Positions 4,783 through 53,819 of a DNA stretch of 64,000 bases are shown here, in pieces. Under the pieces are notes generated by a model. The model made no database searches, was not told the origin of the DNA, and saw only the letters and a program-made list of their open reading frames with translations. The stretch is from an uncultured Acetatifactor sp. (GTDB taxonomy: Bacteria > Bacillota > Clostridia > Lachnospirales > Lachnospiraceae). Position 1 is the stretch's first letter; each line of letters opens with the position of its first letter. The DNA is taken from assembly GCA_910577235.1 (NCBI GenBank), contig CAJTMX010000005.1, positions 2,080 to 66,079 of the forward strand. Reading direction: 5' to 3'. Position numbers and translations under genes: made by a program.

Positions 4783-6246
4783 ATGCTTAACGAATTTGAT
4801 TTGGATAAAATAGATATAAGTGTGATTCCTCCCGAAACGGAGCCGGTCAGACAATACTATTTTATGGCCAAATGCCGGGAATGGGTTCGGGGATTTGAGG
4901 ACAAAAACGGGCGCTCTCCCAGCTGCTGCGTCACGACCTTTGGCTGCCAGATGAATGCCAGAGATTCGGAGAAACTTGTGGGAATCCTGCGCCGGGTGGG
5001 GTATCAGGTGACGGAGAGTGAAGATGCGGATTTTGTGATCTTTAATACCTGTACGGTGCGGGACAATGCCAATCAGAGAGTTTACGGACGCCTGGGGGAA
5101 CTGAAGAGCCGCAAAAAACGGAATCCGCATATGAAGATCGCTCTCTGCGGCTGTATGATGCAGGAGACGACAGTGATCGAAAAACTGCGTTCCAGCTACC
5201 GGTTTGTGGATCTGGTGTTTGGCACTCACAATATTTTTAAGTTCGCGGAGCTGCTATACAGATGTATCTGTGAGAATCATAATGAGCAGGGAATGATCGT
5301 GGATATATGGGAGGATACGGACAAGATAGTGGAGGATCTTCCGGTGGAACGGAAGTATCCCTTTAAGTCGGGTATCAACATTATGTTTGGCTGCAACAAT
5401 TTCTGCAGCTACTGCATTGTTCCCTATGTGCGGGGAAGGGAGCGCAGCCGGGAACCGGAGGAGATACTGAGGGAGATACGGCAGCTGGTCGCCGAGGGCG
5501 TGGTGGAAGTCATGCTGCTGGGACAGAATGTGAACTCTTATGGGAAGAATCTTGATACGCCTATGTCTTTCGCACGGCTTTTGCAGGAGGTGGAGCAGAT
5601 TGAAGGTCTGGAGAGGATTCGTTTTATGACTTCCCATCCCAAGGATCTGTCGGATGAGTTGATACAGGTTATGAAGGAATCAAAAAAGATCTGTCGTCAT
5701 CTGCATCTGCCTCTACAGTCCGGCTCCACCCGAATCCTGCAGCTCATGAACCGCCGGTATACCAAAGAGCAATATCTTGCCCTGGCGGAGAAGATCCGCA
5801 GGGAAATTCCTGATATCGCCATAACAACGGACATTATCGTGGGATTTCCAGGGGAGACGATGGAGGACGTGGAAGAGACGATAGATGTGATCCGCAGAGT
5901 AAAATATGACAATGCCTTTACATTTATCTATTCCAAGCGTACCGGGACACCAGCCGCCGCCATGGAGAACCAGGTGTCTCCTGACCGGGTCAAGGAGGGC
6001 TTTGACCGGGTGCTTAAGGTGGTGCAGGAAACCGCCAGAGAGCAGGTGTCCCGGTATCGGGGGCAACAGGCGCAGGCGCTGGTTGAGGAGGTGAACGCTC
6101 AGGAAGAGGGGCTGCTCACCGGGCGTCTGTCCAATAACACGCTGGTACATTTTCCGGGGGATGCGGAGCTGGTGGGGCGGATCGTCACGGTGTCACTGGA
6201 TGAATGTCTGGGATTTTATTATATGGGACATATGGTATCGCAGTAG
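4783..6246 (+). CDS. miaB: tRNA (i6A37) methylthiotransferase
   Basis: UPF0004 N-domain cysteines (TFGCQMN), radical-SAM CNNFCSYC and a C-terminal TRAM domain. ATG 4783 is preferred over the GTG at 4729 used by the ORF track. Confidence 0.92.
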   Translation: MLNEFDLDKIDISVIPPETEPVRQYYFMAKCREWVRGFEDKNGRSPSCCVTTFGCQMNARDSEKLVGILRRVGYQVTESEDADFVIFNTCTVRDNANQRVYGRLGELKSRKKRNPHMKIALCGCMMQETTVIEKLRSSYRFVDLVFGTHNIFKFAELLYRCICENHNEQGMIVDIWEDTDKIVEDLPVERKYPFKSGINIMFGCNNFCSYCIVPYVRGRERSREPEEILREIRQLVAEGVVEVMLLGQNVNSYGKNLDTPMSFARLLQEVEQIEGLERIRFMTSHPKDLSDELIQVMKESKKICRHLHLPLQSGSTRILQLMNRRYTKEQYLALAEKIRREIPDIAITTDIIVGFPGETMEDVEETIDVIRRVKYDNAFTFIYSKRTGTPAAAMENQVSPDRVKEGFDRVLKVVQETAREQVSRYRGQQAQALVEEVNAQEEGLLTGRLSNNTLVHFPGDAELVGRIVTVSLDECLGFYYMGHMVSQ

Positions 6247-6342: not shown

Positions 6343-7860
6343 GTGATAAAAAAAGGGATATGGCAGAGGTGGATTGTACTGGGAACCCTGTTGCTGGCGC
6401 TTTCGGGCTGCGGCAGGGAGGGGGAGCCAGGAGACAGCGGATTTTCGGGCAATGGAGAGACTTACGGTAGCGGAGAGATGTTGGACAGGGAAGGGGAAAC
6501 CGGCACGGGAGAGACTTCGGATAGGGAAGGGACTTCTGGAGACGTAGGGAATACGGACAGGGAGGAGTCCTACGGCAATGAAGATACTCAGGACGGCAGG
6601 GAGAGCTCAGAGGAAGAATCCTCTGATATAGCAAACCGGGAGCCGGAGGCGACTTTGGAGATTGCCTGTATAGTCAAAGATTTGGGGTTGGTCCCCAGCG
6701 GGCGAAAACTGCTCCGAGACGCGGCCGCGAAACTGACATACGATCCGGATGGACAATATGCGTATGCCTACACGGAACCGGAGGCCGGTGAGGAAGACGC
6801 TTTTTTCACCCGCACCCTTGCGGACCTGACGGCCGGTAAGGGACCGGATATTCTGTATATTTCTCCCGACCGTCTGCAATCCTTACAGGAAAAGGGAGTA
6901 TTGGCGGAACTGACCCAGTATCTGCCCAAAGAGACACGGGACAGTCTGCTGCCCGCCGCTCTGTCGATGGGAACGGTCGAGGGCGGACTCTATGGTATTC
7001 CCACAGACTTTACGTTTGTCTGGAGCCTGATCACTGCGCGGGAGACTGTGAGCGAAGATACATGGACGGTAGAACAGCTGCTGGACCGGATGGAGGCCTG
7101 CCAGGACTCGGAGAACGTGCTTTTGTATCTGGAGAACGGTGCGCCATCGGAGGTTCTGCTGGGAAATGTGATCCTGATGGATCTGGAGAACACCCCTTTC
7201 ATAGACTGGGAGAAGAAAGAGTGTTATTTTGATGGAGAGCTGTTTCAGAGGGCTTTGCGTCTATGTAAAGACTGCGGAAGAAACAATGTCTTTGCTGGGG
7301 ATGACAGCTTTGATCTGATCCGTCAGGGGGACTGTCTGGGAACGGTATTTGTCAGCTTTTCCATTCAGGATTTTTCCAGGCGGGCCCAAAAGCTGGGCGG
7401 AAACATATACCATTGTGTGGGACTTCCCACACAGGGCAGTTCGGGCAGCTTTGCCCAGACCAACGGGATTCTGGTGGTTAACAGTCAGTGTACTCAGGAG
7501 CAGGCCCTGACTGCTTTTCTGGAGTATCTATACAGCAGAGAGGGACAGTCTCCTCTGCGCGATCTGTATGTTATGAGTGTGCTGCGTTTTCCGGCGGAAG
7601 ATGTCACCAGGTATTACGACGGCAGTAAAACCATTGAAAACTATTCCTATGTAGGGATATTGGAGGAAAAGGAAGACGGCAGCACTTATGCGGAGGAGTA
7701 TGCGGAATTTTTGGATAATTGCGTCTCCAGACCAATGAAATATACGGATGTGTGGAACATGATCATGGAGGAAGCGGAAAAATATCTGGAGGGAAATCAG
7801 TCGCTGGAGGAAGTGTGCCGGATCATTCAAAGCCGGGTTCAACTGTATTTGCAGGAATAG
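6343..7860 (+). CDS. lipoprotein with extracellular solute-binding-protein-like domain
   Basis: GTG start 6 nt after AGGAGG. Lipobox LLLALSGC is followed by an acidic 12-aa repeat linker (DREGETGTGETS-like, 36-bp period about 6484-6600). The C-terminal part is clearly paralogous to the 18753-21113 protein (EEYAEFLDNC...RVQLYLQE vs EEYIEFLDSC...RVQLYLNE). Confidence 0.85.
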   Translation: MIKKGIWQRWIVLGTLLLALSGCGREGEPGDSGFSGNGETYGSGEMLDREGETGTGETSDREGTSGDVGNTDREESYGNEDTQDGRESSEEESSDIANREPEATLEIACIVKDLGLVPSGRKLLRDAAAKLTYDPDGQYAYAYTEPEAGEEDAFFTRTLADLTAGKGPDILYISPDRLQSLQEKGVLAELTQYLPKETRDSLLPAALSMGTVEGGLYGIPTDFTFVWSLITARETVSEDTWTVEQLLDRMEACQDSENVLLYLENGAPSEVLLGNVILMDLENTPFIDWEKKECYFDGELFQRALRLCKDCGRNNVFAGDDSFDLIRQGDCLGTVFVSFSIQDFSRRAQKLGGNIYHCVGLPTQGSSGSFAQTNGILVVNSQCTQEQALTAFLEYLYSREGQSPLRDLYVMSVLRFPAEDVTRYYDGSKTIENYSYVGILEEKEDGSTYAEEYAEFLDNCVSRPMKYTDVWNMIMEEAEKYLEGNQSLEEVCRIIQSRVQLYLQE

Positions 7861-7992
7861 GCATTGTTTGCGAAACAGGCTCTGTGGGGATGAAAAATTG
7901 CTTGCAAAAAGCTTATAATGAGAATAAAATAAAATTTGTGTATAATCCGGAAGATTTGCACAGATTTTATTTTTTATTATCTTTTAGAGAAG

Positions 7993-8088
7993 GTTTGAAA
8001 CGAACGATTTCTTATTACCGAATTCATGCAGTTACAAAGACAAAGTATTAATGCATGGCGAGGTAGGTGAGAAGTGAACGTTTCAAAT
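7993..8088 (+). other. long imperfect inverted repeat (rod-like hairpin, about 96 nt)
   Basis: GTTTGAAACG (7993-8002) pairs with CGTTTCAAAT (8079-8088). Nested pairings are TTCTTATTACC/GGTAGGTGAGAA and CATGCA/TGCATG around a 21-nt loop. Confidence 0.35.
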
Positions 8089-8120
8089 ACTCATTGACGC
8101 GATACCAAGGACAAAGTTGA

Positions 8121-8215
8121 GATGATTTATCAAGCGTTAGATGATTTATCAAGCGTTAGATGATTTATCAAGCGTTAGATGATTTATCAACTGGTAGTTG
8201 ATTTATCAACTACAG
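8121..8215 (+). repeat. tandem array, five 19-bp units
   Basis: GATGATTTATCAAGCGTTA x3 (identical), GATGATTTATCAACTGGTA, GTTGATTTATCAACTACAG. The array runs directly into the conserved leader core. Confidence 0.92.
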
Positions 8216-8236
8216 GTATGCGGGAAAGAGGGGAAA
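8194..8236 (+). promoter_or_regulatory. conserved leader element copy 1 (hairpin + CTACAGGTATGCGGGA + SD)
   Basis: Hairpin GTAGTTGAT-TT-ATCAACTAC, invariant 16-mer at 8210-8225, then AAGAGGGG and ATG 8237. Confidence 0.75.
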
Positions 8237-9901
8237 ATGGACAAGCTCAAACCGAAGTTATTTTCTGTGATGAAGACCTATACCAGGGAGCAGTTTGTAA
8301 AGGATGTGGTGGCGGGTATTATCGTTGCCATCATTGCGCTGCCCCTGTCCATCGCTCTGGCGCTGGCCTCCGGTGTCACGCCGGAAAAGGGTATCTATAC
8401 CGCCATAACCGCGGGATTTGTGATTTCCTTTCTGGGAGGCAGCCGGGTGCAGATCGCAGGGCCTACTGCGGCCTTTGCCACTATAGTGGCGGGTATTGTG
8501 GCGAAGAACGGTATGGAAGGACTGATCATGGCCACCGTAATGGCGGGGATCATTTTGATCCTGATGGGCGTGCTGCGGCTGGGCAATCTGATCAAATTTA
8601 TCCCCTATACCATCACAACCGGTTTTACGGCCGGCATAGCCGTGACAATCTTTGTGGGGCAGATCAAGGATTTTCTGGGACTTGTCGTGGTCACGGAGGA
8701 ACCACTGATCGAAACCATGGAAAAGCTGGAGGCAGTGTTCCGTTTTATCGGCACGATAAACTGGCAGGCGGTCATCGTGGGCGTGGTGTGCATGGTGATC
8801 CTTATAGGCTGGCCTTTTTTGCCGGGGATCTGCAAGAAGATTCCGCCTTCCCTGATCGCAGTGCTGGCCGGTATCGCCATGGTAAAGGGCATTGGTATGA
8901 AAGTAGATACCATCGGAGATCTGTATGAGATATCCAATAAACTGCCTGGCATTTCCCTGCCTGCCTTTGATTTTAAGACCGTGCAGAATGTGCTGCCGGA
9001 TGCTTTTACCATCGCAATCCTGGCGGCCATAGAATCCCTGCTTTCCTGTGTGGTGGCGGACGGGATGATTGGCAGCAAGCACCGCTCTAACATGGAACTG
9101 ATCGCCCAGGGAGCGGGCAATATAACTTCCGCACTTTTCGGAGGCATCCCTGCTACCGGGGCCATTGCCCGTACTGCCGCCAATATAAAAAACGGAGGCC
9201 GTACCCCTATTGCGGGTATGGTCCATGCGGTGACGCTGCTGCTGATATTGGTGGTGCTGATGCCCTATGCGGCGCTGATCCCCATGCCCACCATCGCCGC
9301 CATCCTGTTTATGGTGGCCTACAATATGTCGGAATGGCGCAAATTTTTCTATCTGTGCAAAACATCTCCCAAGAGCGATATCATCGTGCTGGTGCTGACT
9401 TTTGTGCTGACCGTGGTATTTGATCTGGTAGTGGCTATCGTTGTCGGTATCGTGCTGGCCGCCATCCTGTTTATGAAACGGATGAGCGAAGTGACGGAAG
9501 TGGAGGGCTGGACCTACATAGACGAGGATGCGGAGAATGACAAGGACAGCATTGAACTGCGCCATGTGCCCAAACACACGCTGGTGTATGAGATGAGCGG
9601 TCCCCTGTTCTTCGGCGCTGCGGATAAGATTCTGGATATCCGCACGGATGATGCCGTTACCGCACTGATCCTGCGGATGCGGAGCGTCAGCGCCATCGAT
9701 GCCACTGCCATGCACAATCTGGAGACTCTGGCATCCACCTGTGAAAAGAAACAGATCCAACTGATCCTGTCCCATGTGAACGAGCAGCCCATGCGTGTCA
9801 TGCGGAAAGCCAGATTCGTGGAGAGGATAGGAGAGAGGTATTTCTGTAAGCATATCGACGATGCGCTGGCAATGGCGGAAGAACTTAATAAAAAGGCTTG
9901 A
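8237..9901 (+). CDS. SulP-family anion transporter with C-terminal STAS domain
   Basis: Multi-TM SulP core (GGIPATGAIARTAANIKNGGRTP) plus a STAS domain. Start set at ATG 8237 (MDKLKPKLF); the ORF track starts at a TTG at 8198. Confidence 0.92.
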   Translation: MDKLKPKLFSVMKTYTREQFVKDVVAGIIVAIIALPLSIALALASGVTPEKGIYTAITAGFVISFLGGSRVQIAGPTAAFATIVAGIVAKNGMEGLIMATVMAGIILILMGVLRLGNLIKFIPYTITTGFTAGIAVTIFVGQIKDFLGLVVVTEEPLIETMEKLEAVFRFIGTINWQAVIVGVVCMVILIGWPFLPGICKKIPPSLIAVLAGIAMVKGIGMKVDTIGDLYEISNKLPGISLPAFDFKTVQNVLPDAFTIAILAAIESLLSCVVADGMIGSKHRSNMELIAQGAGNITSALFGGIPATGAIARTAANIKNGGRTPIAGMVHAVTLLLILVVLMPYAALIPMPTIAAILFMVAYNMSEWRKFFYLCKTSPKSDIIVLVLTFVLTVVFDLVVAIVVGIVLAAILFMKRMSEVTEVEGWTYIDEDAENDKDSIELRHVPKHTLVYEMSGPLFFGAADKILDIRTDDAVTALILRMRSVSAIDATAMHNLETLASTCEKKQIQLILSHVNEQPMRVMRKARFVERIGERYFCKHIDDALAMAEELNKKA

Positions 9902-9902
9902 T

Positions 9903-10105
9903 ACGGCGGCTCTGGGAAATGGAAATGCTTAGAAATAGGTGTCAATGCCGGGAAATGGGCATGCAATGCTTGAAAATGAACGGAAAAACTGAGAAATGGG
10001 CGTGCAATGCCCGGAAATAAACAACAATGCCCGGAAATAAACAACAATGCGGGGAAACGAACGGAAATGCGGGGAAACGAACGGAAATGCCGGGAAATGA
10101 ACAGG
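9903..10105 (+). repeat. tandem array of about 10 units with 20-21-bp period, filling the sulP-metH spacer
   Basis: Units start AATGC: AATGCCCGGAAATAAACAAC x2 (10006-10045), AATGCGGGGAAACGAACGGA x2 (10046-10085), AATGCCGGGAAATGAACAGG (10086-10105), with more diverged units back to 9903. Confidence 0.9.
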
Positions 10106-10152
10106 TAACGCCATAATTAGGACAGAATAAAAATAATTTGAGGAAAGAGATC

Positions 10153-12924
10153 ATGACGAAACAGCTGTTTAGAGATTTTTGCGCGAACCGCTTTATTATA
10201 CTGGACGGAGCTACCGGCTCCAATCTGATCAAAAGGGGTATGCCCTCCGGAGTGTGCCCGGAGCAGTGGATATTGGAGCATCCACAGGCGCTGGTGGAGC
10301 TACAGAGGGACTATGTGGCGGCGGGCACAAATATTCTGTATGCCCCCACATTTACTGCAAACCGTATCAAACTGGAGGAATACGGTCTGGCTGACCGGCA
10401 GGAAGAGATGATATACAGTTTGGTAGCTCTGTCCCGGCAGGCGGCCGGAAGAAGTGCTGCCGGAGGACAGAGCGGGGAAGGACAGACTGCGGGAGATAAC
10501 ATAACGTTTATCGCCGCTGATAAGGCGGCGGGAACAGCTGAGGATCGGGAGCGTGTGCTGGTGGCAGGGGATCTGACGATGACGGGACAGCAGCTGCGGC
10601 CCATGGGCACGATGGAGCTGGAGACTTTGATCGAAGTATATAAAGAACAGATCCGGGTCATGGAGAGCGCCGGGGTGGATCTGTTGGTGGTGGAGACTAT
10701 GATGAGCCTGGGTGAGACACGGGCGGCACTGATAGCGGCCCGGGAGACCACAGAGCTGCCGGTGATGGTGACCATGACCTTTGAGGCGGACGGACGTACC
10801 CTGTTTGGCACGGACGCGGAGACAGCAGCCATAGTGTTGGAGAGCCTGGGTGCTGACGCCATAGGTGTGAACTGTTCCACGGGACCGGCGAAAATGAAGG
10901 GAATCGTGGAGGCTATGGCCCGTGTCAGCAGTTTGCCCCTGATCGCCAAACCAAACGCGGGATTGCCTGCGGTAAATGAGCAGGGACAGACGGTTTATGA
11001 TATGGACAGCGATACCTTTACGGCGGAGATGGAGGAACTGGCAGATGCGGGAGCCGTGATCCTGGGAGGATGCTGCGGCACAGACCCCTGCTATATCGCG
11101 GGTCTGAAACGCATGACACAGGGGAAAAAGCCCAGGGAGCGGAAAGGGCGGCCTGACGGTATCCGTTATCTGACAGGTGAGCGGAAGACGCTGGTTTTTG
11201 GTCTGGAAGATCCCTTTATGATCATCGGGGAGCGGATCAATCCAACCGGCAAGAAAAAGCTGCAGGAGCAGTTGAGAAACGGCAATATGGACCTGGTGCT
11301 GCAATATGCTCAGGAGCAGGACGCCTGCGGAGCATCCGTACTGGATATCAATATGGGCATGAGCGGCATTGACGAGAAAGCCATGATGCTGCGGGTGCTG
11401 GAGGAGGTACAGGGGATTACGGATCTGCCTCTGTCTCTGGATTCCAGCCATGTGGAGGTGCTGGAGGCGGCGCTGCGCCATTACCCCGGACGGGCGCTGG
11501 TCAACTCCGTGTCCTATGAGACGGAGAAGTTTGAAAAACTGTTGCCCATCGTGCAGAAATACGGGGCTATGTTCATTTTGCTGCCCCTGTCCGACAAGGG
11601 ACTGCCCGAAAATCTGGAGGAGAAAAAACAGATCATAGACTGCATCGTGACCCGGGCGCAGGAGCTGGGGATGCGCAGGGAAGATATCATAGTGGATGGT
11701 CTGGTGACAACCATAGGTGCAAACAAACAGGCGGCGCTGGAGACATTGGAGACGATACGCTACTGTAAGGCTCAGGGACTGGCTACTGTCTGCGGGCTGT
11801 CCAATATCTCTTTCGGTATGCCTGCCAGACCTTATGTGAATACAGCCTTTTTGACGCTGGCAATATATGAAGGACTGACCATGGCAATCGCCAATCCCTC
11901 TCAGGAAATGCTGGTCTGCGGGGCTTTGGCCACGGATATGTTGAAGGTTAGAAAAGACGCCGATCTGCGGTATATTGAGTATGCCGCGCAGTTACAGCCG
12001 GTGACAGCCGCTGCCGGGCCGGGCAATTCCGGCGCGGCGGCAGGTATAGGCCGGAGTGATCCTCAAGCGGTATCAGGTGCAGGCCAGGGAAATCCCGGCA
12101 CAATGTTAGGTGCAGGCCAGGGAAATCCCGGCACAGCGTCAGGTGCAGGCCAGGGAAATCCCGGCACAGCGTCAGGTGCAGGCCAAGGCAATTCGGGCGC
12201 GGCGGCAGGTATAGACCGGAGTGATCCCCGAGCGGCGTCAGGCTTTGGGCAGAACGGCGGGGCCGCCAGAGCGCCGCAGACGTATGCCCAGAAGATCACG
12301 GACGCCGTGCTAAAGGGCAACCGCAGCGGTATCGCGGCCATGACAAGGGAGGCGGTGGCGGCGGGAGAAGATCCCGGTACACTGCTTAACGACAGTCTGC
12401 TGCCTGCAATCAATAAAGTGGGGGATCTGTTTGAGAAAAAGAAATATTTTTTACCCCAGCTGATCGCCAGCGCCGAGGCCATGAAGAACGCCATTGAAGT
12501 GTTGGAGCCCTATCTGCTGAAGAAACAGGACGGAGATTCCATGCCGGTGGTTGTCATTGCCACCGTGGAGGGGGATATCCATGATATCGGTAAGAACCTG
12601 GTGGCACTTATGCTGAAAAACTATGGGTTCAAAGTGATAGATCTGGGTAAGGATGTGCCCAAGGAAACCATTGTGCAGGCGGCGAAGGAGCATCATGCGG
12701 ACATCATCGCCCTGTCTGCGCTGATGACCACTACGATGCAGCGGATGCGGGAAGTGGTAGCCCTGGCACGGCAGGAGGGCGTGACAGCCAGGATCATGGT
12801 GGGAGGAGCGGTGATCACCCAGGAGTACGCGGATGAGATTCATGCGGACGGATATTCCAAAGACGCGGCGGAGGCGGTGAAACTTGCCCGGCGACTGCTG
12901 GGCATGATGAGCGCGGACATGTAG
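10153..12924 (+). CDS. metH: cobalamin-dependent methionine synthase (Hcy-methyltransferase + pterin-binding + B12-binding; no AdoMet reactivation domain seen)
   Basis: Contains GVNCSTGP and GGCCGTDP (Zn-ligand cysteines), ERINPTGKKK pterin domain and the B12 motif GDIHDIGKN. ATG 10153 follows GAGGAAAGAG. Confidence 0.92.
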   Translation: MTKQLFRDFCANRFIILDGATGSNLIKRGMPSGVCPEQWILEHPQALVELQRDYVAAGTNILYAPTFTANRIKLEEYGLADRQEEMIYSLVALSRQAAGRSAAGGQSGEGQTAGDNITFIAADKAAGTAEDRERVLVAGDLTMTGQQLRPMGTMELETLIEVYKEQIRVMESAGVDLLVVETMMSLGETRAALIAARETTELPVMVTMTFEADGRTLFGTDAETAAIVLESLGADAIGVNCSTGPAKMKGIVEAMARVSSLPLIAKPNAGLPAVNEQGQTVYDMDSDTFTAEMEELADAGAVILGGCCGTDPCYIAGLKRMTQGKKPRERKGRPDGIRYLTGERKTLVFGLEDPFMIIGERINPTGKKKLQEQLRNGNMDLVLQYAQEQDACGASVLDINMGMSGIDEKAMMLRVLEEVQGITDLPLSLDSSHVEVLEAALRHYPGRALVNSVSYETEKFEKLLPIVQKYGAMFILLPLSDKGLPENLEEKKQIIDCIVTRAQELGMRREDIIVDGLVTTIGANKQAALETLETIRYCKAQGLATVCGLSNISFGMPARPYVNTAFLTLAIYEGLTMAIANPSQEMLVCGALATDMLKVRKDADLRYIEYAAQLQPVTAAAGPGNSGAAAGIGRSDPQAVSGAGQGNPGTMLGAGQGNPGTASGAGQGNPGTASGAGQGNSGAAAGIDRSDPRAASGFGQNGGAARAPQTYAQKITDAVLKGNRSGIAAMTREAVAAGEDPGTLLNDSLLPAINKVGDLFEKKKYFLPQLIASAEAMKNAIEVLEPYLLKKQDGDSMPVVVIATVEGDIHDIGKNLVALMLKNYGFKVIDLGKDVPKETIVQAAKEHHADIIALSALMTTTMQRMREVVALARQEGVTARIMVGGAVITQEYADEIHADGYSKDAAEAVKLARRLLGMMSADM
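12076..12207 (+). repeat. in-frame 33-bp tandem repeat inside the metH linker
   Basis: GGTGCAGGCCAGGGAAATCCCGGCACAGCGTCA occurs about 4 times (12076, 12109, 12142, 12175) and encodes GAGQGNPGTAS repeats. It is flanked by a second repeated pair (GNSGAAAGI(G/D)RSDP). Confidence 0.88.
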
Positions 12925-12995: not shown

Positions 12996-13664
12996 ATGAA
13001 GTTTATTAACGGCAAGAAAAAACAAACGGAAAATAAACCGATGGAACAGCGGGAGGAAGTGCAAGCAGCCGGATGGGATGCCATTGCGAAAGAATGCGAG
13101 AGAGTCTATCCCGGAAAGCTGAGAGAACATTATGGTACTTTACTCAAATGGATGCTTGGCGGCAAGGACCCGCTGGACGGAATAGATCTTTATGACGGAG
13201 GGGATTACTGGCATTTTGTGACATATGGGATGTCGGAACTGTACGAGAAAGAAAGCGATGATCAGGAGTTCAGCGGTTATGGAATGGAGTTTACCTTTCG
13301 GCTCAAAAAAGACAACTATGAGGACGAAAAAGGGGAGTTGATGTGTATCTGCGGAATTCTACAGAGTCTGGCCAGGCTCACCTATATCCAGGGAGAAATA
13401 TTTAATCCCTGGGAGTATGTGTATACCGGTCAGACTCAGGGGATAGACGTACAAACAAAGTCTAACATTACAGGTTTTATCACTGTGCCGGACAGCAAAC
13501 TTCAGACGCTGGATTCGCCGAATGGAAAAGTGGAGTTCGTGGAATTTATCGGCGTGACCGACAGGGAACTGCTGGCGATCCAGCATGGGGAGACAACGGT
13601 ACAGGAATTGTTTACGGCATTGGGGAGCGAAACGACTGATTATAACAGGGATTCTCTCTATTAG
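12996..13664 (+). CDS. SUFU-like (suppressor-of-fused domain) protein
   Basis: Translation (GGDYWHFVTYGMSELYEKES, GYGMEFTFRLKK) resembles bacterial SUFU-family proteins, which are often immunity proteins. Assigned from memory of the family only. Confidence 0.75.
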   Translation: MKFINGKKKQTENKPMEQREEVQAAGWDAIAKECERVYPGKLREHYGTLLKWMLGGKDPLDGIDLYDGGDYWHFVTYGMSELYEKESDDQEFSGYGMEFTFRLKKDNYEDEKGELMCICGILQSLARLTYIQGEIFNPWEYVYTGQTQGIDVQTKSNITGFITVPDSKLQTLDSPNGKVEFVEFIGVTDRELLAIQHGETTVQELFTALGSETTDYNRDSLY

Positions 13665-13859
13665 AGACTGTTAGGGACTGTTGAATAAAGAAACGGCCTG
13701 GTCAGATGTTGCTAATCCATACATAATTGATAGGGGACAACATGTCAAGGCAGTTACGAACTTGCAGGAAATACTTTTTACTGTCAATACTGTCAACTGC
13801 GGAAAATTTTGGGCGGTATGAATAAACAGAGTGGAAAACATTGAAGGGAATGATATAAT

Positions 13860-14396
13860 ATGAAGAAGTATCTGCGTCATGCTTTGGTGGCGGCTATAGC
13901 GGGAATAGTTTTCTATATGGTCTATGCCTATGACAGTTTTAGCCGGAAAGGGCTTGATACATGGCTAGTGGGGCAGACGGACGAAGATCATTACCCTGAT
14001 TGGGAAGGGAACATGGAGGTCCTGGAAATTGACCGGAACATACGAAGTATACGTCATCTATCCCTTTCCAGAGTATACTTGATTGAGTATGCGGACAGTT
14101 ACCAACTCCGTTTTCGGATCGCATACAGTATTCCTTTTTTACATAACAGCCTGTTTGAGGATACAAAGTGGGAGAAAATGACGGATTCCGACGGAAATGA
14201 GTATTTTAGCCGTATGACTGTTTACCCCTCTGAGATTGCAGGCTTGAATTGCATAAATGTGGCGCTGGTCATGGATGCGGATACATTTTCTGCAATGTCG
14301 GACGGAAAATTAACTGTCTCGGCAGTTTGTGCGGGAGACGACGAAAATAGCTATGCCAATTGCGAGGTAGAGATTCTGTTTCCTGAGATTGACTGA
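13860..14396 (+). CDS. hypothetical membrane-anchored protein
   Basis: 178-aa ORF with one N-terminal TM helix (ALVAAIAGIVFYMVYAY). No recognisable domain. Confidence 0.55.
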   Translation: MKKYLRHALVAAIAGIVFYMVYAYDSFSRKGLDTWLVGQTDEDHYPDWEGNMEVLEIDRNIRSIRHLSLSRVYLIEYADSYQLRFRIAYSIPFLHNSLFEDTKWEKMTDSDGNEYFSRMTVYPSEIAGLNCINVALVMDADTFSAMSDGKLTVSAVCAGDDENSYANCEVEILFPEID

Positions 14397-14599: not shown

Positions 14600-16216
14600 A
14601 TGATAGGAGCAGATGCCATAATCAAATGCTTGGAAGAAGAGGGCGTAAAGTATGTGTTCGGCTACCCCGGCGTGGCTATATGTCCGTTTTATAACAGTAT
14701 CCTGCAGTCGGAGATCCAGACCATATTGATACGCACGGAGCAGAATGCCGCCCATGCGGCCAGCGGTATGGCTCGGATCACGGGAAAACCCGGTGTCTGT
14801 GCCGTCACCAGCGGCCCCGGTGCCACCAATGTGATCACCGGTATCGCCACCGCTTTTGCGGACAGCATTCCTCTGGTGTGCATCACCGGGCAGGTACATA
14901 CGGATCTGCTGGGCAGCGATTCCTTTCAGGAGGCAGATATTACCGGCGCGGTGGAGTCCTTTGTCAAATACAGCTATCTGATCAAGAATGTAAACGATAT
15001 CCCCAGGATTTTTAAGGAGGCTTTTCACATCGCCAACACAGGCCGCAGAGGGCCTGTGCTCATCGATATCCCCATCGATATCCAGAATGCGGTGATTAAT
15101 AAGTTCCAGTACCCGGAGGAGGTCAATATGCGCACCTACAAGCCCACGGTCAAGGGGCACGCGGTGCAGATCAAAAAAGTTATCAGGGAACTGGGAAAGG
15201 CAAAACGTCCCATCATCTGTGCGGGCGGCGGCGTGCTGCTCAGCGAGGCCAAGGAGGAATTGCGGGAATTTGTGGAAAAATACCGGATTCCGGTGGTGTC
15301 TACGATGATGGGCATCGGCGTCATGCCCACAGAGCATCCGCTGTATTTCGGTATGGTGGGCAACCACGGCAAGGCGTATGCCAACAGGGCCATGAACGAA
15401 TCGGATATGCTTATCATGGTGGGAGCCAGAGTGGCGGACCGTGCGATAAGTCAGCCGGATCTGATCACCCGTGACAAAGTGCTGGTGCATATTGACGTGG
15501 ACCCGGCGGAGATCGGCAAGAACGCCGGACCTACCATACCGTTGGTGGGAGACGTAAAACATATCTTTCAGGATTTTGCCAAGGAAGAGTTTAGCTGTGA
15601 ACATGAGCAGTGGATAGATACTTTGACGCAGTACAGGGAAACCCTTGTGGCGAAACGCAGTCCCAATCCCGCTTATGTGGACCCGGCGGCCTTTATCACC
15701 CGGCTGTCGGAAAAGATGGCTCCGAACGCGGTGTATGTGGCGGACGTGGGACAGAACCAGATATGGTCCTGCAGCTATCATATCGTGAAGGAAGGGCGTT
15801 TCCTCACCTCCGGCGGTATGGGCACCATGGGGTATTCGATCCCGGCGGCCCTGGGGGCTAAGCTGGCGGACGAAAGCCGGCAGGTCATCGCGGTGTGCGG
15901 CGACGGTTCTTTCCAGATGTCCATGATGGAGTTGGCAACCATGAGCCAATACCGGGTCCCGGTAAAGATCATCGTGTTGAAAAACGGCTATCTGGGCATG
16001 GTGCGAGAGTACCAGCATTATACTTACAAGGACAATTATTCGGTGGTGGACTTATCCGGCAGTCCCAGACTGGACAAGATCGCGGCAGCTTACGATATGC
16101 AGTATCAGCTGCTGGAAAATATGGACCGGGCAGAGGAGGAACTGGACGCCTTTCTCAGGGAAGATACATCGGTACTGTTGGAATGCCTGATCGATCCCAT
16201 GGATCTTGTGAAGTGA
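14600..16216 (+). CDS. ilvB: acetolactate synthase large subunit
   Basis: ThDP enzyme with N-terminus MIGADAIIKCLEEEGVKYVFGYPG and the ThDP motif GDGSFQM...N. ATG 14600 follows AGGAGG. Confidence 0.93.
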   Translation: MIGADAIIKCLEEEGVKYVFGYPGVAICPFYNSILQSEIQTILIRTEQNAAHAASGMARITGKPGVCAVTSGPGATNVITGIATAFADSIPLVCITGQVHTDLLGSDSFQEADITGAVESFVKYSYLIKNVNDIPRIFKEAFHIANTGRRGPVLIDIPIDIQNAVINKFQYPEEVNMRTYKPTVKGHAVQIKKVIRELGKAKRPIICAGGGVLLSEAKEELREFVEKYRIPVVSTMMGIGVMPTEHPLYFGMVGNHGKAYANRAMNESDMLIMVGARVADRAISQPDLITRDKVLVHIDVDPAEIGKNAGPTIPLVGDVKHIFQDFAKEEFSCEHEQWIDTLTQYRETLVAKRSPNPAYVDPAAFITRLSEKMAPNAVYVADVGQNQIWSCSYHIVKEGRFLTSGGMGTMGYSIPAALGAKLADESRQVIAVCGDGSFQMSMMELATMSQYRVPVKIIVLKNGYLGMVREYQHYTYKDNYSVVDLSGSPRLDKIAAAYDMQYQLLENMDRAEEELDAFLREDTSVLLECLIDPMDLVK

Positions 16217-16282
16217 GCAACGGTGGCGTTGGACGCGGCATCATTGCCCATGTGGAGAACTATTTATTGGAGCCGTACCGCA

Positions 16283-16322
16283 AGTTGACTTGTCAACTAC
16301 AGGTATGCGGGAAGAGGTAATT
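16283..16322 (+). promoter_or_regulatory. conserved leader element copy 2 (intercistronic, ilvB-ilvN)
   Basis: Hairpin AGTTGAC-TT-GTCAACT, invariant 16-mer at 16297-16312, then AGAGG and ATG 16323. Confidence 0.75.
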
Positions 16323-16814
16323 ATGAAAAAGAGAATTTATTCTGTGCTGGTGGAGAACCGCTCCGGCGTGCTGGGCAAGGTGGCCGGGCTCTTTGCCAGA
16401 AGATGCTTTAATATTGACTCTCTGACGGTGGGAGAGACCGATGACCCGGAGATATCCTGTATGACCATAGTGAGCAGCGGGGATGAGCGCACCATCGAGC
16501 AGATTGAAAAGCAGCTGAACAAAAAGCTGGATGTGATCAAGGTCAAGACTTTCGACGAGAGCCAGAGCGTCAGCCGGGAGCTGATGCTGGTGAAGGTGCG
16601 CCACAACAAGGGAAACCGAAGGGAGATCACGGAGGTATGTGAGATCCTGCGGGCGGAGATTGTGGATATGTCCAAACATTTCATGATGATCCAGATCTGC
16701 GATACTCCGGACAGAACCAAACTGCTGCTGACCATGCTCCAGTCCATCAGCATAGCGGAAGTGGCCCGCACAGGGACTCTGGCGCTGGCAAAATGCAGCG
16801 AGAATGATGATTAG
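16323..16814 (+). CDS. ilvN: acetolactate synthase small (regulatory) subunit, ACT domain
   Basis: MKKRIYSVLVENRSGVLGKVAGLFARRCFNIDSLTV is a typical AHAS small-subunit N-terminus. Confidence 0.88.
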   Translation: MKKRIYSVLVENRSGVLGKVAGLFARRCFNIDSLTVGETDDPEISCMTIVSSGDERTIEQIEKQLNKKLDVIKVKTFDESQSVSRELMLVKVRHNKGNRREITEVCEILRAEIVDMSKHFMMIQICDTPDRTKLLLTMLQSISIAEVARTGTLALAKCSENDD

Positions 16815-50305: not shown

Positions 50306-50353
50306 TTGACTTTTAGAACATTGTTCAATATAATGTAGTTGAACAATGTTCAA
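50306..50353 (+). promoter_or_regulatory. consensus promoter with two TetR-type operator palindromes
   Basis: TTGACT, 17-bp spacer, TATAAT. GAACATTGTTC (50316-50326) lies in the spacer and TTGAACAATGTTCAA (50339-50353) lies just downstream. Confidence 0.65.
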
Positions 50354-50365
50354 GGAGGGCTTGAT

Positions 50366-50950
50366 ATGGACAGAAACGCGAATGTAAAAAATCGCATTAT
50401 TGAAGTAACAATCGAATTGATTGAACAGTACAACGGTAACTTAAAAGATATTACTGCCCGTATGATAGCGGCGAAAGCAAACGTTGGATTAGGCTTAATC
50501 AACTATCACTTTGGGAGTAAAGAAAAATTGATAACGGAATGTGTGCAGCGCATTATCGGAAAAGTAGTTACTGAATTTCAGATGACAAAACAATATGAAA
50601 CAGATAAAGAACGCTTAACTACTTGCGCTTCCTGTGTTTTTGATTTTCTATTTGAACATTCTGCAATTTCGCGTGTTTCTATTTTGGGTGATTTGCAAAA
50701 TTATACGAATAATTGTAATTCTGTGCTTACTCAACAGGGCTTTTCGCTGTCTTTCAAGAATGATATATCTCAAGAGGATAAATCCATGTTTGTATTTATT
50801 CTCACTGCCGCAATGCAGACAGCATTTTTAGGAAGTGAAACAGTCAAACAATTGCTTGGTTATGATTTTACGAAAACCGAGGATAGAACCGCATATATTG
50901 GTAAATTAGTCGCTATTCTCTTTGAAGGGATGGTGCAGATTAATGAATAA
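50366..50950 (+). CDS. TetR/AcrR-family transcriptional regulator
   Basis: N-terminal HTH (ITARMIAAKANVGLGLINYHFGSKEKL). The gene is AT-rich. Confidence 0.85.
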   Translation: MDRNANVKNRIIEVTIELIEQYNGNLKDITARMIAAKANVGLGLINYHFGSKEKLITECVQRIIGKVVTEFQMTKQYETDKERLTTCASCVFDFLFEHSAISRVSILGDLQNYTNNCNSVLTQQGFSLSFKNDISQEDKSMFVFILTAAMQTAFLGSETVKQLLGYDFTKTEDRTAYIGKLVAILFEGMVQINE

Positions 50951-51542
50951 GAAAATAGGGGTGTATGGCTCTGCCGTTAATTTCATTGCGGTACTCTGCT
51001 TTGCTCTGTCTATGTTATTTGGCTTTGATTATGGCAGTTACTTTTGTTCAATGTTCATTGCGTTTAGTTTTGTACCAATGATGTGCGGATATGCTTACTT
51101 TTCCGAAAAGAATGTTAAATTATCGGGCTATGTTTCAGTGGCATTTGCCACTGTATACGCAGCTATCATTCTATTGGTATATTTTGCACAGCTAACAACT
51201 GTCCGGCTGAATCATTTAACACAACAAGCCACTGTACTTCTTGATTTTCAGCAATGCGGACTGCTATTTAACTATGACTTATTAGGTTATGCAGTCATGT
51301 CATTAGCCACATTCTTTGCCGGATTGACGGTAAAACCGCAGTTACAAATAGACAAGTGGCTGAAATATCTGCTCATGGTACATGGAGCGTTTTTTATCTC
51401 CTGTTTATTATTTCCTATGCTTGGGATATTCAAAGCGGACAGTCCGGCGTGGATAGGTGTGGCGATATTAGAATTTTGGTGTTTACTTTTTTGCCCTATT
51501 AGTATTTTGTCTTTTTTGCATTTTTCTAAGTGCCAGGAATGA
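50943..51542 (+). CDS. hypothetical polytopic membrane protein (start overlaps the TetR stop)
   Basis: About 6 TM helices. The ATG overlaps the TetR gene end by 8 bp. Same AT-rich composition as the TetR gene. Confidence 0.7.
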   Translation: MNKKIGVYGSAVNFIAVLCFALSMLFGFDYGSYFCSMFIAFSFVPMMCGYAYFSEKNVKLSGYVSVAFATVYAAIILLVYFAQLTTVRLNHLTQQATVLLDFQQCGLLFNYDLLGYAVMSLATFFAGLTVKPQLQIDKWLKYLLMVHGAFFISCLLFPMLGIFKADSPAWIGVAILEFWCLLFCPISILSFLHFSKCQE

Positions 51543-51592: not shown

Positions 51593-51804
51593 TGTGCTTG
51601 CAGGATTTCCTGCATATATAAATATACTGGCGCAAGGAATAGTAGTTTTCCCTTTCCCTGACACAAAATGTATGTTATAATATGTGTGGATAAAAAACGG
51701 TAAATGACTGAAAAAATGCACAATTTGACAGAGAAGAGAGAAATTTGGATGTCGTGCATTCAAATTTGATCTTTGCTATATTGTAGATGTGGCAATACTT
51801 GGCT

Positions 51805-51861
51805 TGTAAATTTGTAGCTGATTTGTAAATTTGTAGCTGATTTGGCAACTTGTAGTTGATT
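51805..51861 (+). repeat. tandem array, three 19-bp units
   Basis: TGTAAATTTGTAGCTGATT x2 and TGGCAACTTGTAGTTGATT, running directly into leader element copy 3. Confidence 0.88.
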
Positions 51862-51890
51862 AGACGGCTACAGGTATGCGGGAGGATATT
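51852..51890 (+). promoter_or_regulatory. conserved leader element copy 3
   Basis: Hairpin GTAGTTG-ATTAGA-CGGCTAC (two G-U pairs), invariant 16-mer at 51868-51883, then GGA and ATG 51891. Confidence 0.75.
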
Positions 51891-53819
51891 ATGGCAAAAG
51901 CAAATAATTACGGAGCAGACAGTATAACGGTGTTGGAGGGACTGGAGGCGGTGCGCAAGCGTCCGGGCATGTATATTGGCAGTGTGTCCACCAAGGGCCT
52001 GAACCATCTGATCTATGAGATCGTGGACAATTCCGTGGACGAACATCTGGCGGGGTATTGCGATACGATCAATGTGACTTTGGAGGCGGACGGCTCCGCC
52101 ACCGTCAGCGATAACGGAAGAGGTATTCCGGTGGGGATGCATGAGAAAGGTATCAGCGCCGAGCGGTTGGTATTTACCACGCTGCACGCAGGAGGAAAAT
52201 TCGACAACAACGCCTACAAGACCAGCGGCGGACTGCACGGCGTGGGTTCCTCGGTGGTCAACGCTCTGTCCAACAGGCTGACCGTCACCGTCAAGGTGGG
52301 AGGTTGTGTCTATCAGGATCAATATGAAAAGGGTCTTCCGGTGACAGAGCTGGAGAACGGTCTGTTGCCGATCATAGGCAAGACCAGAGAAACGGGAACC
52401 ACGATCAACTTCTTGCCGGACGATACGATCTTTGACAAGACCCGTTTTAAGGAGGATGAGGTAAAGAGCCGCCTCCATGAGACAGCTTATCTGAATCCGG
52501 AACTGACCATCGTATTTGAGGACAAGCGAAAAGAGGAGCCGGAGCGCATCGTCTTCCATGAACCGGAGGGGATCACGGGATTTATACGGGACATGAACAA
52601 GGGGGACGAACCGGTTCATGAATGTATTTATTTCAAGGGGGAGGCAGAGGACATTGTAGTGGAAGTGGCTTTCCAGTATGTGAACGAGTTTCATGAGAAT
52701 GTGCTGGGATTCTGTAACAATATCTACAACTCTGAGGGAGGCACGCATCTGACGGGTTTCAAGACACAATTTACCAATGTGATCAATACTTATGCCCGGG
52801 AACTGGGTATCCTCAAGGAAAAGGATGTGAATTTTACCGGCGCGGATGTGCGCAACGGTATGACGGCGGTGGTGTCTATCAAGCATCCCGATCCCCGTTT
52901 TGAAGGACAGACCAAGACCAAGCTGGACAATCAGGACGCGGCCAAGGTGGTGGCCAAGATCACCGGGGAGGAGATCGTCCATTATTTTGACCGTAATCTG
53001 GAAGTGCTGAAGAATATCATCGGCTGTGCCGAGAAGGCGGCCAAGATCCGCAAGACGGAGGAGAAGGCAAGGACCAATATGCTGACCAAGCAGAAGTTTT
53101 CCTTTGATTCCAACGGGAAACTGGCTAACTGCGAGTCCAAGGACCCTTCCAGATGCGAGATATTCATTGTGGAGGGCGACTCTGCGGGAGGCAGTGCCAA
53201 GACGGCCCGGGACCGCAGCTTTCAGGCGATACTGCCAATCCGGGGCAAGATTCTGAATGTGGAGAAAGCCAGCATCGATAAGGTACTTGCCAACGCGGAG
53301 ATCAAGACCATGATCAACGCTTTCGGATGTGGATTTTCGGAGGGGTACGGTAACGATTTTGATATTTCCAAGCTGCGCTATGACAAGATCATTATTATGA
53401 CGGATGCGGATGTGGACGGTTCCCATATCTCCATGTTGCTGCTGACGCTGTTTTACCGTTTTATGCCGGAGCTGATCTATGAGGGGCATGTGTATCTGGC
53501 TATGCCGCCGCTGTACAAGGCTATGCCTTCCAAGGGGAAGGAAGAGTATCTTTATGACGACAAGGCTTTGGAGAGGTATCGCAAGAGCCATAAGGGGCCT
53601 TTTACGTTGCAGAGATACAAGGGACTGGGGGAGATGGATGCCCAACAGCTGTGGGAGACTACGCTGGACCCGGCTACGCGGATGATGAAGCGGGTGGAGA
53701 TCGAGGACGCCAGGTTGGCCACGGATCTTACCAGCACGCTGATGGGGACGGATGTTCCGCCCCGGAAGGCGTTTATTTATGAGCATGCTACGGATGCGGA
53801 GCTGGATTATAATGCTTGA
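51891..53819 (+). CDS. type IIA topoisomerase B subunit (GyrB/ParE family)
   Basis: [31 protein letters not shown] and [10 protein letters not shown] motifs. Whether it is GyrB or ParE cannot be decided from this gene alone. Confidence 0.93.

Follow-up and report, generated by a model that had tools for sequence, protein, structure and literature searches.

Three identical copies of the 16-nt sequence CTACAGGTATGCGGGA in the 64-kb stretch of DNA analysed here (the window) represent just one part, the 3′ tail, of a larger element with a modular build. With a probability of roughly 60%, we read this element as a small, non-coding, modular dispersed repeat of the MIRU/BOX/BrickBuilt/REP2-like class, carried by a small number of gut Lachnospiraceae. 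It adds a new example to a familiar ("junk-or-tuning") kind of bacterial repeat, is not a new regulatory signal and does not open a long-standing question. Copies have evidently been gained and lost between close lineages. The identity of the tail would be better explained by recent spread and homogenisation than by old constraint, because the orthologous sites are empty or diverged and because diverged copies keep the helices but not the GCGGGA of the tail. If this reading is correct, uncultured, Acetatifactor-like gut Lachnospiraceae have their own family of small structured repeats; such repeats have been catalogued mostly in Proteobacteria, mycobacteria, streptococci and Neisseria.

The exact copies of the 16-mer were located at 8210–8225, 16297–16312 and 51868–51883 (sites 1, 2 and 3), all on the + strand. 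Both strands of the window contained no further match with up to three mismatches. Shuffled sequence gave a mean of 0.41 matches at this threshold, and three copies are far beyond chance. Between the end of each copy and the following start codon (at 8237, 16323 and 51891) lie 11, 10 and 7 nt, respectively. Based on Pfam domains, the called gene at site 1 encodes a SulP transporter (Sulfate_transp and STAS), site 2 lies between ilvB (TPP_enzyme; acetolactate synthase large subunit) and ilvN (ACT_AHAS_ss; small subunit), and the gene at site 3 encodes a GyrB/ParE-like topoisomerase (HATPase_c, DNA_gyraseB and Toprim). An ATG embedded in the 16-mer shared the reading frame of ilvN and of the topoisomerase gene, but not that of sulP (+19). 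A preliminary description of this DNA had reported the same three sense-strand copies 7–11 nt before the starts of unrelated genes, and its positions, distances and reading frames were confirmed.

From 5′ to 3′, the element consists of an optional hairpin (P0), a linker, the 5′ strand of P1, a spacer, P2, a single A, the 3′ strand of P1, GGGA and the Shine–Dalgarno sequence (SD). In folding, P1 was the outer helix of 7 bp (GCNAUACC/GGUAUGC), with its GGUAUGC strand inside the 16-mer, and enclosed the spacer, the arrays described below and the inner hairpin P2 (GTAGTTGRY-loop-RYCAACTAC). At site 1, the 16-mer is composed of the CTAC of P2, the A, the P1 3′ strand GGTATGC and GGGA. The loop of P2 was TT, TCT, TTT or ATTAGA, and CGGA in the copy of the metagenome-assembled genome (MAG) L037; P2 was sometimes amplified into 19-nt tandem units. 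Approximate lengths of the element are 50–60 nt for the basic form, 90–110 nt if the 5′ module is present and at most 170 nt in copies with arrays. Homology among copies continued for approximately another 30–50 nt in the 5′ direction. After removal of hairpin and tail, sites 1 and 3 each still aligned to a copy in another MAG (L023a), with none of 300 shuffles reaching the score. The arms of P0 were TTTGGAAG/CTTCCAAA in L023a, TTTGAAAC/GTTTCAAA in L147a and TTTGGATG/CATTCAAA at site 3, and degenerate at site 1.

All features described in the following are on the + strand. At site 1, the 5′ module (degenerate P0 and TACTCATTGAC; 8069–8098) was supported by the local alignment to L023a and was close to ACGTTTCAAATACTGATTAACGCAGTATC of L147a; the nhmmer match covered 8045–8230. 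The P1 5′ strand GCGATACC (8099–8106) paired with 8215–8221 of the tail in the minimum free energy (MFE) fold and in the pair counts. Tandem Repeats Finder (TRF) detected an array with a period of 19 nt (unit AGATGATTTATCAAGCGTT, 4.7 copies, 8120–8209). Its last units form P2 (GTAGTTGAT-TT-ATCAACTAC, 8194–8213; fold and pair counts), which is followed by the SD AAGAGGGG and the sulP ATG (8226–8239), both unpaired in the fold. Promoter-like sites were present upstream at 7890–7946. An extended −10-like TGTGTATAAT (7937–7946), which is a consensus match only, was conserved in the sister lineage, and the element at site 1 therefore probably lies within the sulP 5′ UTR.

At site 2, an extra structured spacer (16217–16271, with a hairpin at 16217–16247 in the fold) directly follows the ilvB stop codon. 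This spacer was unique to the site 2 copy and absent from the sister lineage, and no similarity to it was found elsewhere. It is followed by the P1 5′ strand GCCGTACC (16272–16279; pair counts), P2 (AGTTGAC-TT-GTCAACT, 16283–16298; fold), the tail with the P1 3′ strand at 16302–16308, and the SD AGAGG with the ilvN ATG (16313–16325). In both site 2 and L023a, the MFE fold takes the shifted register CCGCA/UGCGG in place of P1.

At site 3, P0 (TTTGGATG-TCGTG-CATTCAAA) occupies 51744–51764, its first TTTGG being native leader common to the sister lineage. A 5′ border at 51724 was rejected, since part of the 5′ alignment between site 3 and L023a (TGACA...GAAATTTGG) is likewise native leader common to the sister lineage; the border was placed at approximately 51749. 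The P1 5′ strand GCAATACT (51792–51799; pair counts) precedes a TRF array (unit TTGTAAATTTGTAGCTGAT, period of 19 nt, 3.1 copies, 51804–51861), P2 (GTAGTTG-ATTAGA-CGGCTAC, 51852–51871), the tail with the P1 3′ strand at 51873–51879, and the SD GGGAGGA with the ATG of the topoisomerase gene (51880–51893). An extended −10-like TGTTATAAT was read from the sequence at 51673–51681; promoter prediction called no full −35/−10 pair upstream of site 3. No promoter-like or terminator-like sites were predicted within the elements. As judged from these surroundings, the element appears to sit in transcribed gaps, either in 5′ UTRs or between the cistrons of operons, and to end at the ribosome-binding site.

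In structural alignments of 3–10 sequences, hand-fitted to the structure, 92–93% of the cells of P1 and P2 paired, versus at most 34% with the partners slid, and four pairs of P1/P2 had changed on both sides. A C-G pair of P1 was replaced by U-A at two independent loci, with a C × A intermediate in L147b. Three of the eight pairs of P0 had changed on both sides among three sequences, and P2 of L037 differed in sequence with pairing kept (GTCTGGC/GCCGGAC). Some support for the maintenance of all three helices through compensatory base changes is thus given; it is support rather than proof, because the alignments are small and were fitted to the structure. The three P2 hairpins had already been recognised in the preliminary description and were recovered here. 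The covariation it ascribed to them was found again, within these small, hand-fitted alignments, together with changes in P1 and P0 that it had missed. Its suggestion of a sequestering element was not borne out, the SD and the start codon being unpaired in every predicted fold.

The same data bear on the possibility that the palindrome and the 19-bp, iteron-like arrays are double-stranded DNA sites bound by a transcription factor or nucleoid protein that blocks or tunes transcription into the gene. Sites 1 and 2 have perfect inverted repeats of 7–9 bp around a 2-bp centre, which would suit such a protein, as would direct repeats with a regular 19-bp period. However, a DNA operator is very improbable, since it is the pairing that is conserved and not the half-site sequence: the half-sites vary in L037 (GTCTGGC/GCCGGAC) and pair through G-U at site 3, and the array units of site 1 differ in sequence from those of site 3. 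Additionally, P1 and P0 also covary, which is not required of a double-stranded operator, and site 2 is intercistronic and has no promoter.

At sites 1 and 3, the P2 hairpin is the final unit of the head-to-tail array. With their tails, the two arrays aligned in register over 69 nt with 77% identity. Assemblies of the same species differed in array length, with three to six units at site 1 depending on the strain; at site 3, one strain had additional units and two further strains were each one unit short. In strain L004, the last array unit weakens the hairpin. At site 3, strains carried either CGGCTAC or CAACTAC as the 3′ hairpin arm. In the sister lineage, arrays were absent from both the sulP and the topoisomerase site. 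The 19-nt arrays are ready strain-typing (VNTR) markers for these species, which are represented by MAGs only. The tail-like ATGCGGGGAAA in the metH array was judged from the sister sequence to be a chance variant.

The orthologous sites differed between lineages. The ilvB–ilvN spacer was 106 nt long in all strains of the window lineage, whereas in the sister lineage it was 22 nt long, with its own SD and no element, even though the IlvN protein was identical; many synonymous positions differed. The sister lineage carried a short, array-less copy at sulP (14 of 16 tail positions) and a short, diverged version at the topoisomerase site (10 of 16) lacking the array, P0 and P1, with a well-conserved native leader 5′ of it. 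The upstream regions of sulP orthologues with 92%, 85% and 84% protein identity were unrelated, and the element was absent from them. The earlier proposal of a portable module before start codons is upheld by the empty ilvB–ilvN gap, the absence of the element from these sulP orthologues and its occurrence at other genes elsewhere. Because neither the sulP nor the topoisomerase site is empty in either lineage, divergence in place rather than new insertion could explain part of the pattern. Both copies of the sister lineage carried GGGAGAGAGG; similarly, a stem top of GGC/GCC was common to L023a and L023b, and that of L147b was GAC/GTC. Copies within one genome were more alike than orthologous copies, which is what gene conversion between dispersed copies would give.

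Occupancy in both lineages is also what would be expected without mobility, if old, independent leaders owed the motif to descent from a duplicated region or to convergent evolution of a favourable translation initiation region. At site 3, the arrays look as if made locally from native AAATTTGG...GTAGTT sequence. Nevertheless, this explanation is scarcely credible given the empty ilvB–ilvN and vanXY|vanTm sites (the latter described below) and the copies of approximately 100 nt that are 70–85% alike in different species at different genes; moreover, convergence cannot yield three exact 16-mers.

Copies beyond the window were sought in 185,579 species-representative genomes, in which the exact 16-mer had 44 single hits, the bulk of them coding or chance matches, e.g., to the conserved region STGMRDLD of a DnaB-like protein in Faecousia. 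True copies were found only in two Lachnospiraceae MAGs (L023 and L037, with one exact 16-mer in each representative genome) and perhaps in a Ruminococcaceae MAG (L015). The L037 copy lies between an ABC-2 permease and its ATPase. In L023, copy L023a lies at the vanXY|vanTm junction, and a diverged copy (L023b), which lacks the exact 16-mer and was found with a hidden Markov model of the full element, occupies the entire 61-nt stop-to-start gap at vanTm|vanTr. The vanXY|vanTm junction was filled in L023 and L147, the VanXY proteins of which are 96% identical, and empty (20 nt) in L148 and L150. In L147, a family member without P2 (L147a) occupies this junction and a P2-containing copy (L147b) the next one. 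A weak covariance-model hit in L148 was attributed to chance, as it lies inside a PDDEXK_2 gene. All nine copies were co-oriented with their genes and ended, counted from P1, 11–15 nt before the start codon; site 2, L023a, L023b, L147a, L147b and L037 were intercistronic. In the diverged L023 and L147 copies, GCGGGA was replaced by GCATGG or GCAGAG with the helices kept. The naturally filled and empty junctions (ilvB|ilvN and vanXY|vanTm) offer a clean test of what a structured insert of 60–170 nt does to translational coupling and mRNA stability.

Other searches added no copies. Within the window, a covariance model with filters off and several nhmmer variants found only the three sites, and the covariance model found none in the 10 kb on each side. 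There were 58 hits in JGI metagenomes and, for ACAGGTATGCGGGARRR, 9 hits in IMG/VR, all due to chance; a 104-nt copy had no BLAST match among plasmids and phages. In Rfam 15, the whole window had no gathering-level hit and 16200–16345 had none at E ≤ 10; the Rfam search proposed in the preliminary description thus matched no family.

These comparisons also bear on the idea of a cis-regulatory RNA, in which the single-stranded tail beside the SD (ACAGGUAUGCGGGA) would be bound by a dedicated RNA-binding protein or small RNA that imposes a common translational control on sulP, ilvN, the topoisomerase gene and others. No strain differed in the tail, nor did copies of three other genomes; the tail always adjoins the SD inside the predicted transcript, and the helices are kept by compensatory change. 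A stretch of 22 nt (CTACAGGTATGCGGGAAAGAGG) was identical between species (site 1, L023a and L037), which could mean functional constraint, with the qualification that the L023a and L037 copies were retrieved with the exact 16-mer as the query. However, the tail was absent at ilvN of the sister lineage and at the more distant sulP orthologues and retained only 10 of 16 positions at the sister topoisomerase gene, and the supposed recognition sequence GCGGGA was altered in the L023 and L147 copies while their helices persisted. According to the predicted folds, pairing in P1 involves half of the tail, the genes have no function in common, the 64-kb window contained no antisense match to the 16-mer with up to three mismatches, and no Rfam family matched. 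Such a binding site, as first proposed for this DNA, found no evidence in its favour and is possible but unlikely. Identical short motifs next to SD sequences should not be called a regulon without a check of the orthologous sites.

With respect to mobility, no transposase was present in the window or its flanks, and the window consists of ordinary chromosomal genes. No consistent direct repeat bordered sites 1–3, L023a, L023b, L147a, L147b or L037, nor did one emerge from comparison with the empty sites; as the latter are 10–20% diverged, short target-site duplications could be hidden. Long terminal inverted repeats were not found, and the 7-bp inverted pair GCNATACC/GGTATGC is short and not terminal, with P0 outside it and GGGA after it. 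The preliminary description had considered that the sequence might be the terminus of a known IS or MITE. It is indeed the tail of a MITE-like repeat, but not of one that we found described.

An alternative route of movement is that of repetitive extragenic palindromes (REPs), with P2 as a GTAG-headed single-stranded DNA hairpin moved by a RAYT or an IS200/IS605-type Y1 transposase encoded elsewhere and the arrays as BIME-like clusters. GTAG-tagged palindromes are a hallmark of RAYT-associated REPs, and REP, SMAG and BIME sequences are likewise short, GTAG-headed and clustered in variable numbers, acting as RNA hairpins in transcripts and affecting mRNA stability (PMC3733652, PMC3184786). P2 starts with GTAG and ends with CTAC in most copies, is kept by compensatory change (in L037 with a different sequence) and forms clusters that vary between strains. 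In contrast to the unpaired tag and alternating orientation of REPs (PMC3733652, PMC3184786), GTAG is paired with CTAC in the stem of P2 and the array units are head-to-tail; L037 and L147a lack GTAG, and the family member L147a has no P2 at all. REPs occur in hundreds of copies, mostly 3′ of genes and associated with RAYTs, none of which is shown for the element (PMC3733652, PMC3184786). Its copies lie upstream of starts, its copy number looks low (three in approximately 84 kb of window and flanks; one exact 16-mer per L023 and L037 genome), no Y1 transposase was seen in the window, and GTAG REPs are mostly proteobacterial (PMC3733652). A REP-type origin is a lead, but a quite improbable one.

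For the dispersed repeat that we favour, we propose that the element disperses through insertion or ectopic copying and that gene conversion homogenises the copies within a genome; spread and gene conversion together would account for the triply identical tail. The low copy number in the DNA covered, and the failure to find a target-site duplication, long terminal inverted repeats or a transposase, count against this reading. In tight operons, in which the gap between stop codon and SD would be the only place that tolerates an insert, a copy would persist only if it folds compactly and retains or provides an accessible SD; such survival would explain why position and orientation are fixed. In cis, the element would probably act as a structured spacer. 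The 5′ stem may protect or stabilise the mRNA of the downstream cistron, the fold may bring the upstream stop codon near the downstream SD so that translational coupling is retained, and array length may tune these effects; no trans-acting partner would be needed.

A stronger version holds that the element is a mobile operon-junction cassette whose insertion is specific to the few bases that separate a stop codon (or 5′ UTR) from a purine-rich SD. P1 would place the stop codon next to the SD, creating or preserving coupling across an insert of 60–170 nt, and the 19-nt array would act as a strain-variable expression dial. We regard this version as rather unlikely. If true, SD targeting would imply nucleic-acid-guided or single-stranded-DNA-based insertion, which is not yet described for such small repeats.

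Among known repeats, pneumococcal BOX elements (boxA-boxB(n)-boxC) are likewise modular, with variable internal tandem subunits between conserved ends, and likewise fold stably and are transcribed with their neighbours. With subunits of 59, 45 and 50 nt, they are larger than the element, and they occur in more than 100 copies with no known fixed relation to the SD. A similar build is seen in BrickBuilt, a minisatellite-containing MITE of Porphyromonas gingivalis, which also has a leader, short head-to-tail units without spacers (23 nt versus 19 nt in the element) and a tail, small inverted repeats in leader and tail, tens of copies or fewer, strictly intergenic positions and a limited host range (PMC4596501). 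BrickBuilt lies 49–591 nt from genes, has bidirectional promoter activity and no fixed relation to the SD (PMC4596501), whereas the element directly adjoins the SD, shares the orientation of the gene in every copy and is without a predicted promoter. The two are unrelated in sequence and in phylum; the likeness is one of build and not homology.

Mycobacterial interspersed repetitive units (MIRUs) share with the element a size of 40–100 bp, location inside operons with co-transcription, filled versus empty sites between relatives, a tandem copy number that varies between strains, internal inverted repeats and, less clearly in the element, imperfect terminal ones, and ends that touch the flanking stop and start codons (PMC3184786). 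In MIRUs the whole unit repeats in tandem, whereas the element amplifies an internal 19-nt module only; MIRU small ORFs couple the neighbouring genes (PMC3184786), whereas read-through to an overlapping ATGA occurs in L023a only. No tetranucleotide direct repeats were found for the element, which belongs to a different phylum and is likened to MIRUs by build alone. Neisseria REP2 (CREN) and Borrelia IR-A are low-copy (approximately 25) dispersed repeats immediately upstream of ORFs, with two internal stem-loops, that deliver a ribosome-binding site to unrelated genes (PMC3184786). REP2 carries a promoter and an ATG and defines a co-regulated gene set (PMC3184786). In contrast, the element is without a promoter-like site and relies on the start codon of the gene itself; several copies are intercistronic, and the ribosome-binding site abuts or belongs to the element.

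Several further candidates were set aside. On inspection, a sigma-54 or sporulation-sigma promoter in the tail had the wrong spacing, DnaA boxes in the array reached only 6–7 of 9 positions, complementarity to the 16S 790 loop needed two gaps, and the likeness to a yeast-like GUAUG 5′ splice site was a coincidence. A CsrA-type site would have GGA in the loop of a short hairpin that overlaps the SD, and GGA was in a loop only in L037 (CGGA); CUACAGGUAUGC resembles the CsrA SELEX consensus but is without its invariant GGA. An upstream ORF from the embedded ATG was rejected, as the frames differ, there is no usable SD and the ATG is paired in P1. The 5′ module matches the VanXY C-terminus (ETNVSNTD*), but an origin of the module from a fragment of vanXY was rejected: set against VanXYg (PDB 4f78) and homologues ending in LTQW, this protein tail proved to be the ORF reading into the element. 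In L023a, the VanXY reading frame continues for 30 codons within the element and stops at a TGA that overlaps the next ATG (ATGA), and the reading frames differ between copies.

The spacer between sulP and the MetH-like gene contained a second strain-variable tandem array (window 9943–10103), with a period of 20 nt and a unit of approximately GGAAATGCSGGGAAAYGAAC, located directly 5' of the MetH-like gene. The number of units in this period-20 array differed from strain to strain, and in the sister lineage the array was collapsed. It had no sequence relation to the 19-nt array found inside the dispersed repeat at the sulP and GyrB/ParE-like sites. The window genome seems prone to tandem expansions of about 20 nt in leaders. 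A further repeat, with a 33/66-nt period, was observed at 12012–12242, within the MetH-like ORF itself (10138–12924). Depending on the strain, the called MetH-like product was 868 to 923 aa long, which suggests a coding VNTR.

T-box or cobalamin/SAM leaders are common before ilvB and MetH-like genes in Firmicutes. At the Rfam gathering threshold, zero matches were obtained in the whole 64 kb (window 1–64000), and the regions before ilvB and before the MetH-like gene were likewise without a match.

Two gene pairs of the window lineage, at 12996–14396 and 50339–51542, were missing in the sister lineage. The pairs consisted of a SUFU-like gene with a 178-aa ORF and a TetR-like gene with a 199-aa ORF, and both were located upstream of repeat-carrying loci, namely ilvBN and the GyrB/ParE-like gene. 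The GyrB/ParE-like gene (51891–53819) was not adjacent to its GyrA/ParC-like partner (57466–59709, DNA_topoisoIV domain), as five unrelated genes lay between them.

Outside the window, a tandem array with a 21-nt period and GCAGGTWTGCGGGAAGACS units was observed on a Bifidobacteriaceae contig (other-genome loci L040, ~7580–7800, and L066, ~5960–6020). One unit contained the exact 16-mer by coincidence; the array looks unrelated to the element.

A vanL-like operon was present in Acetatifactor-like MAGs, including L023 (3382–7607, minus strand) and L147 (2043–9139), which carry repeat copies in the operon, and L148 (1955–9206), a relative with an empty vanXY–vanTm junction. The operon encoded a two-component system, VanW, a D-Ala-D-X ligase, VanXY and a serine racemase split into vanTm and vanTr. 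The VanXY ORF of L023 had lost its stop codon and read through the repeat for 30 codons, with the terminal TGA overlapping the ATG of vanTm. L150, another relative with an empty vanXY–vanTm junction, had an insert of approximately 100 nt in the vanTm–vanTr spacer (~7880–7990), with long inverted arms (TTATACTCACGAGCGGTTAGATTTTCCTTCCTGCCCGT ... ACGGGCAGGAATTGGAAAATCTTAGCGCTCGTCAGTATAA), that was not found in L148 and L149. It represents a MITE-like insertion distinct from the dispersed repeat, copies of which occupy this vanTm–vanTr junction in L023 and L147.
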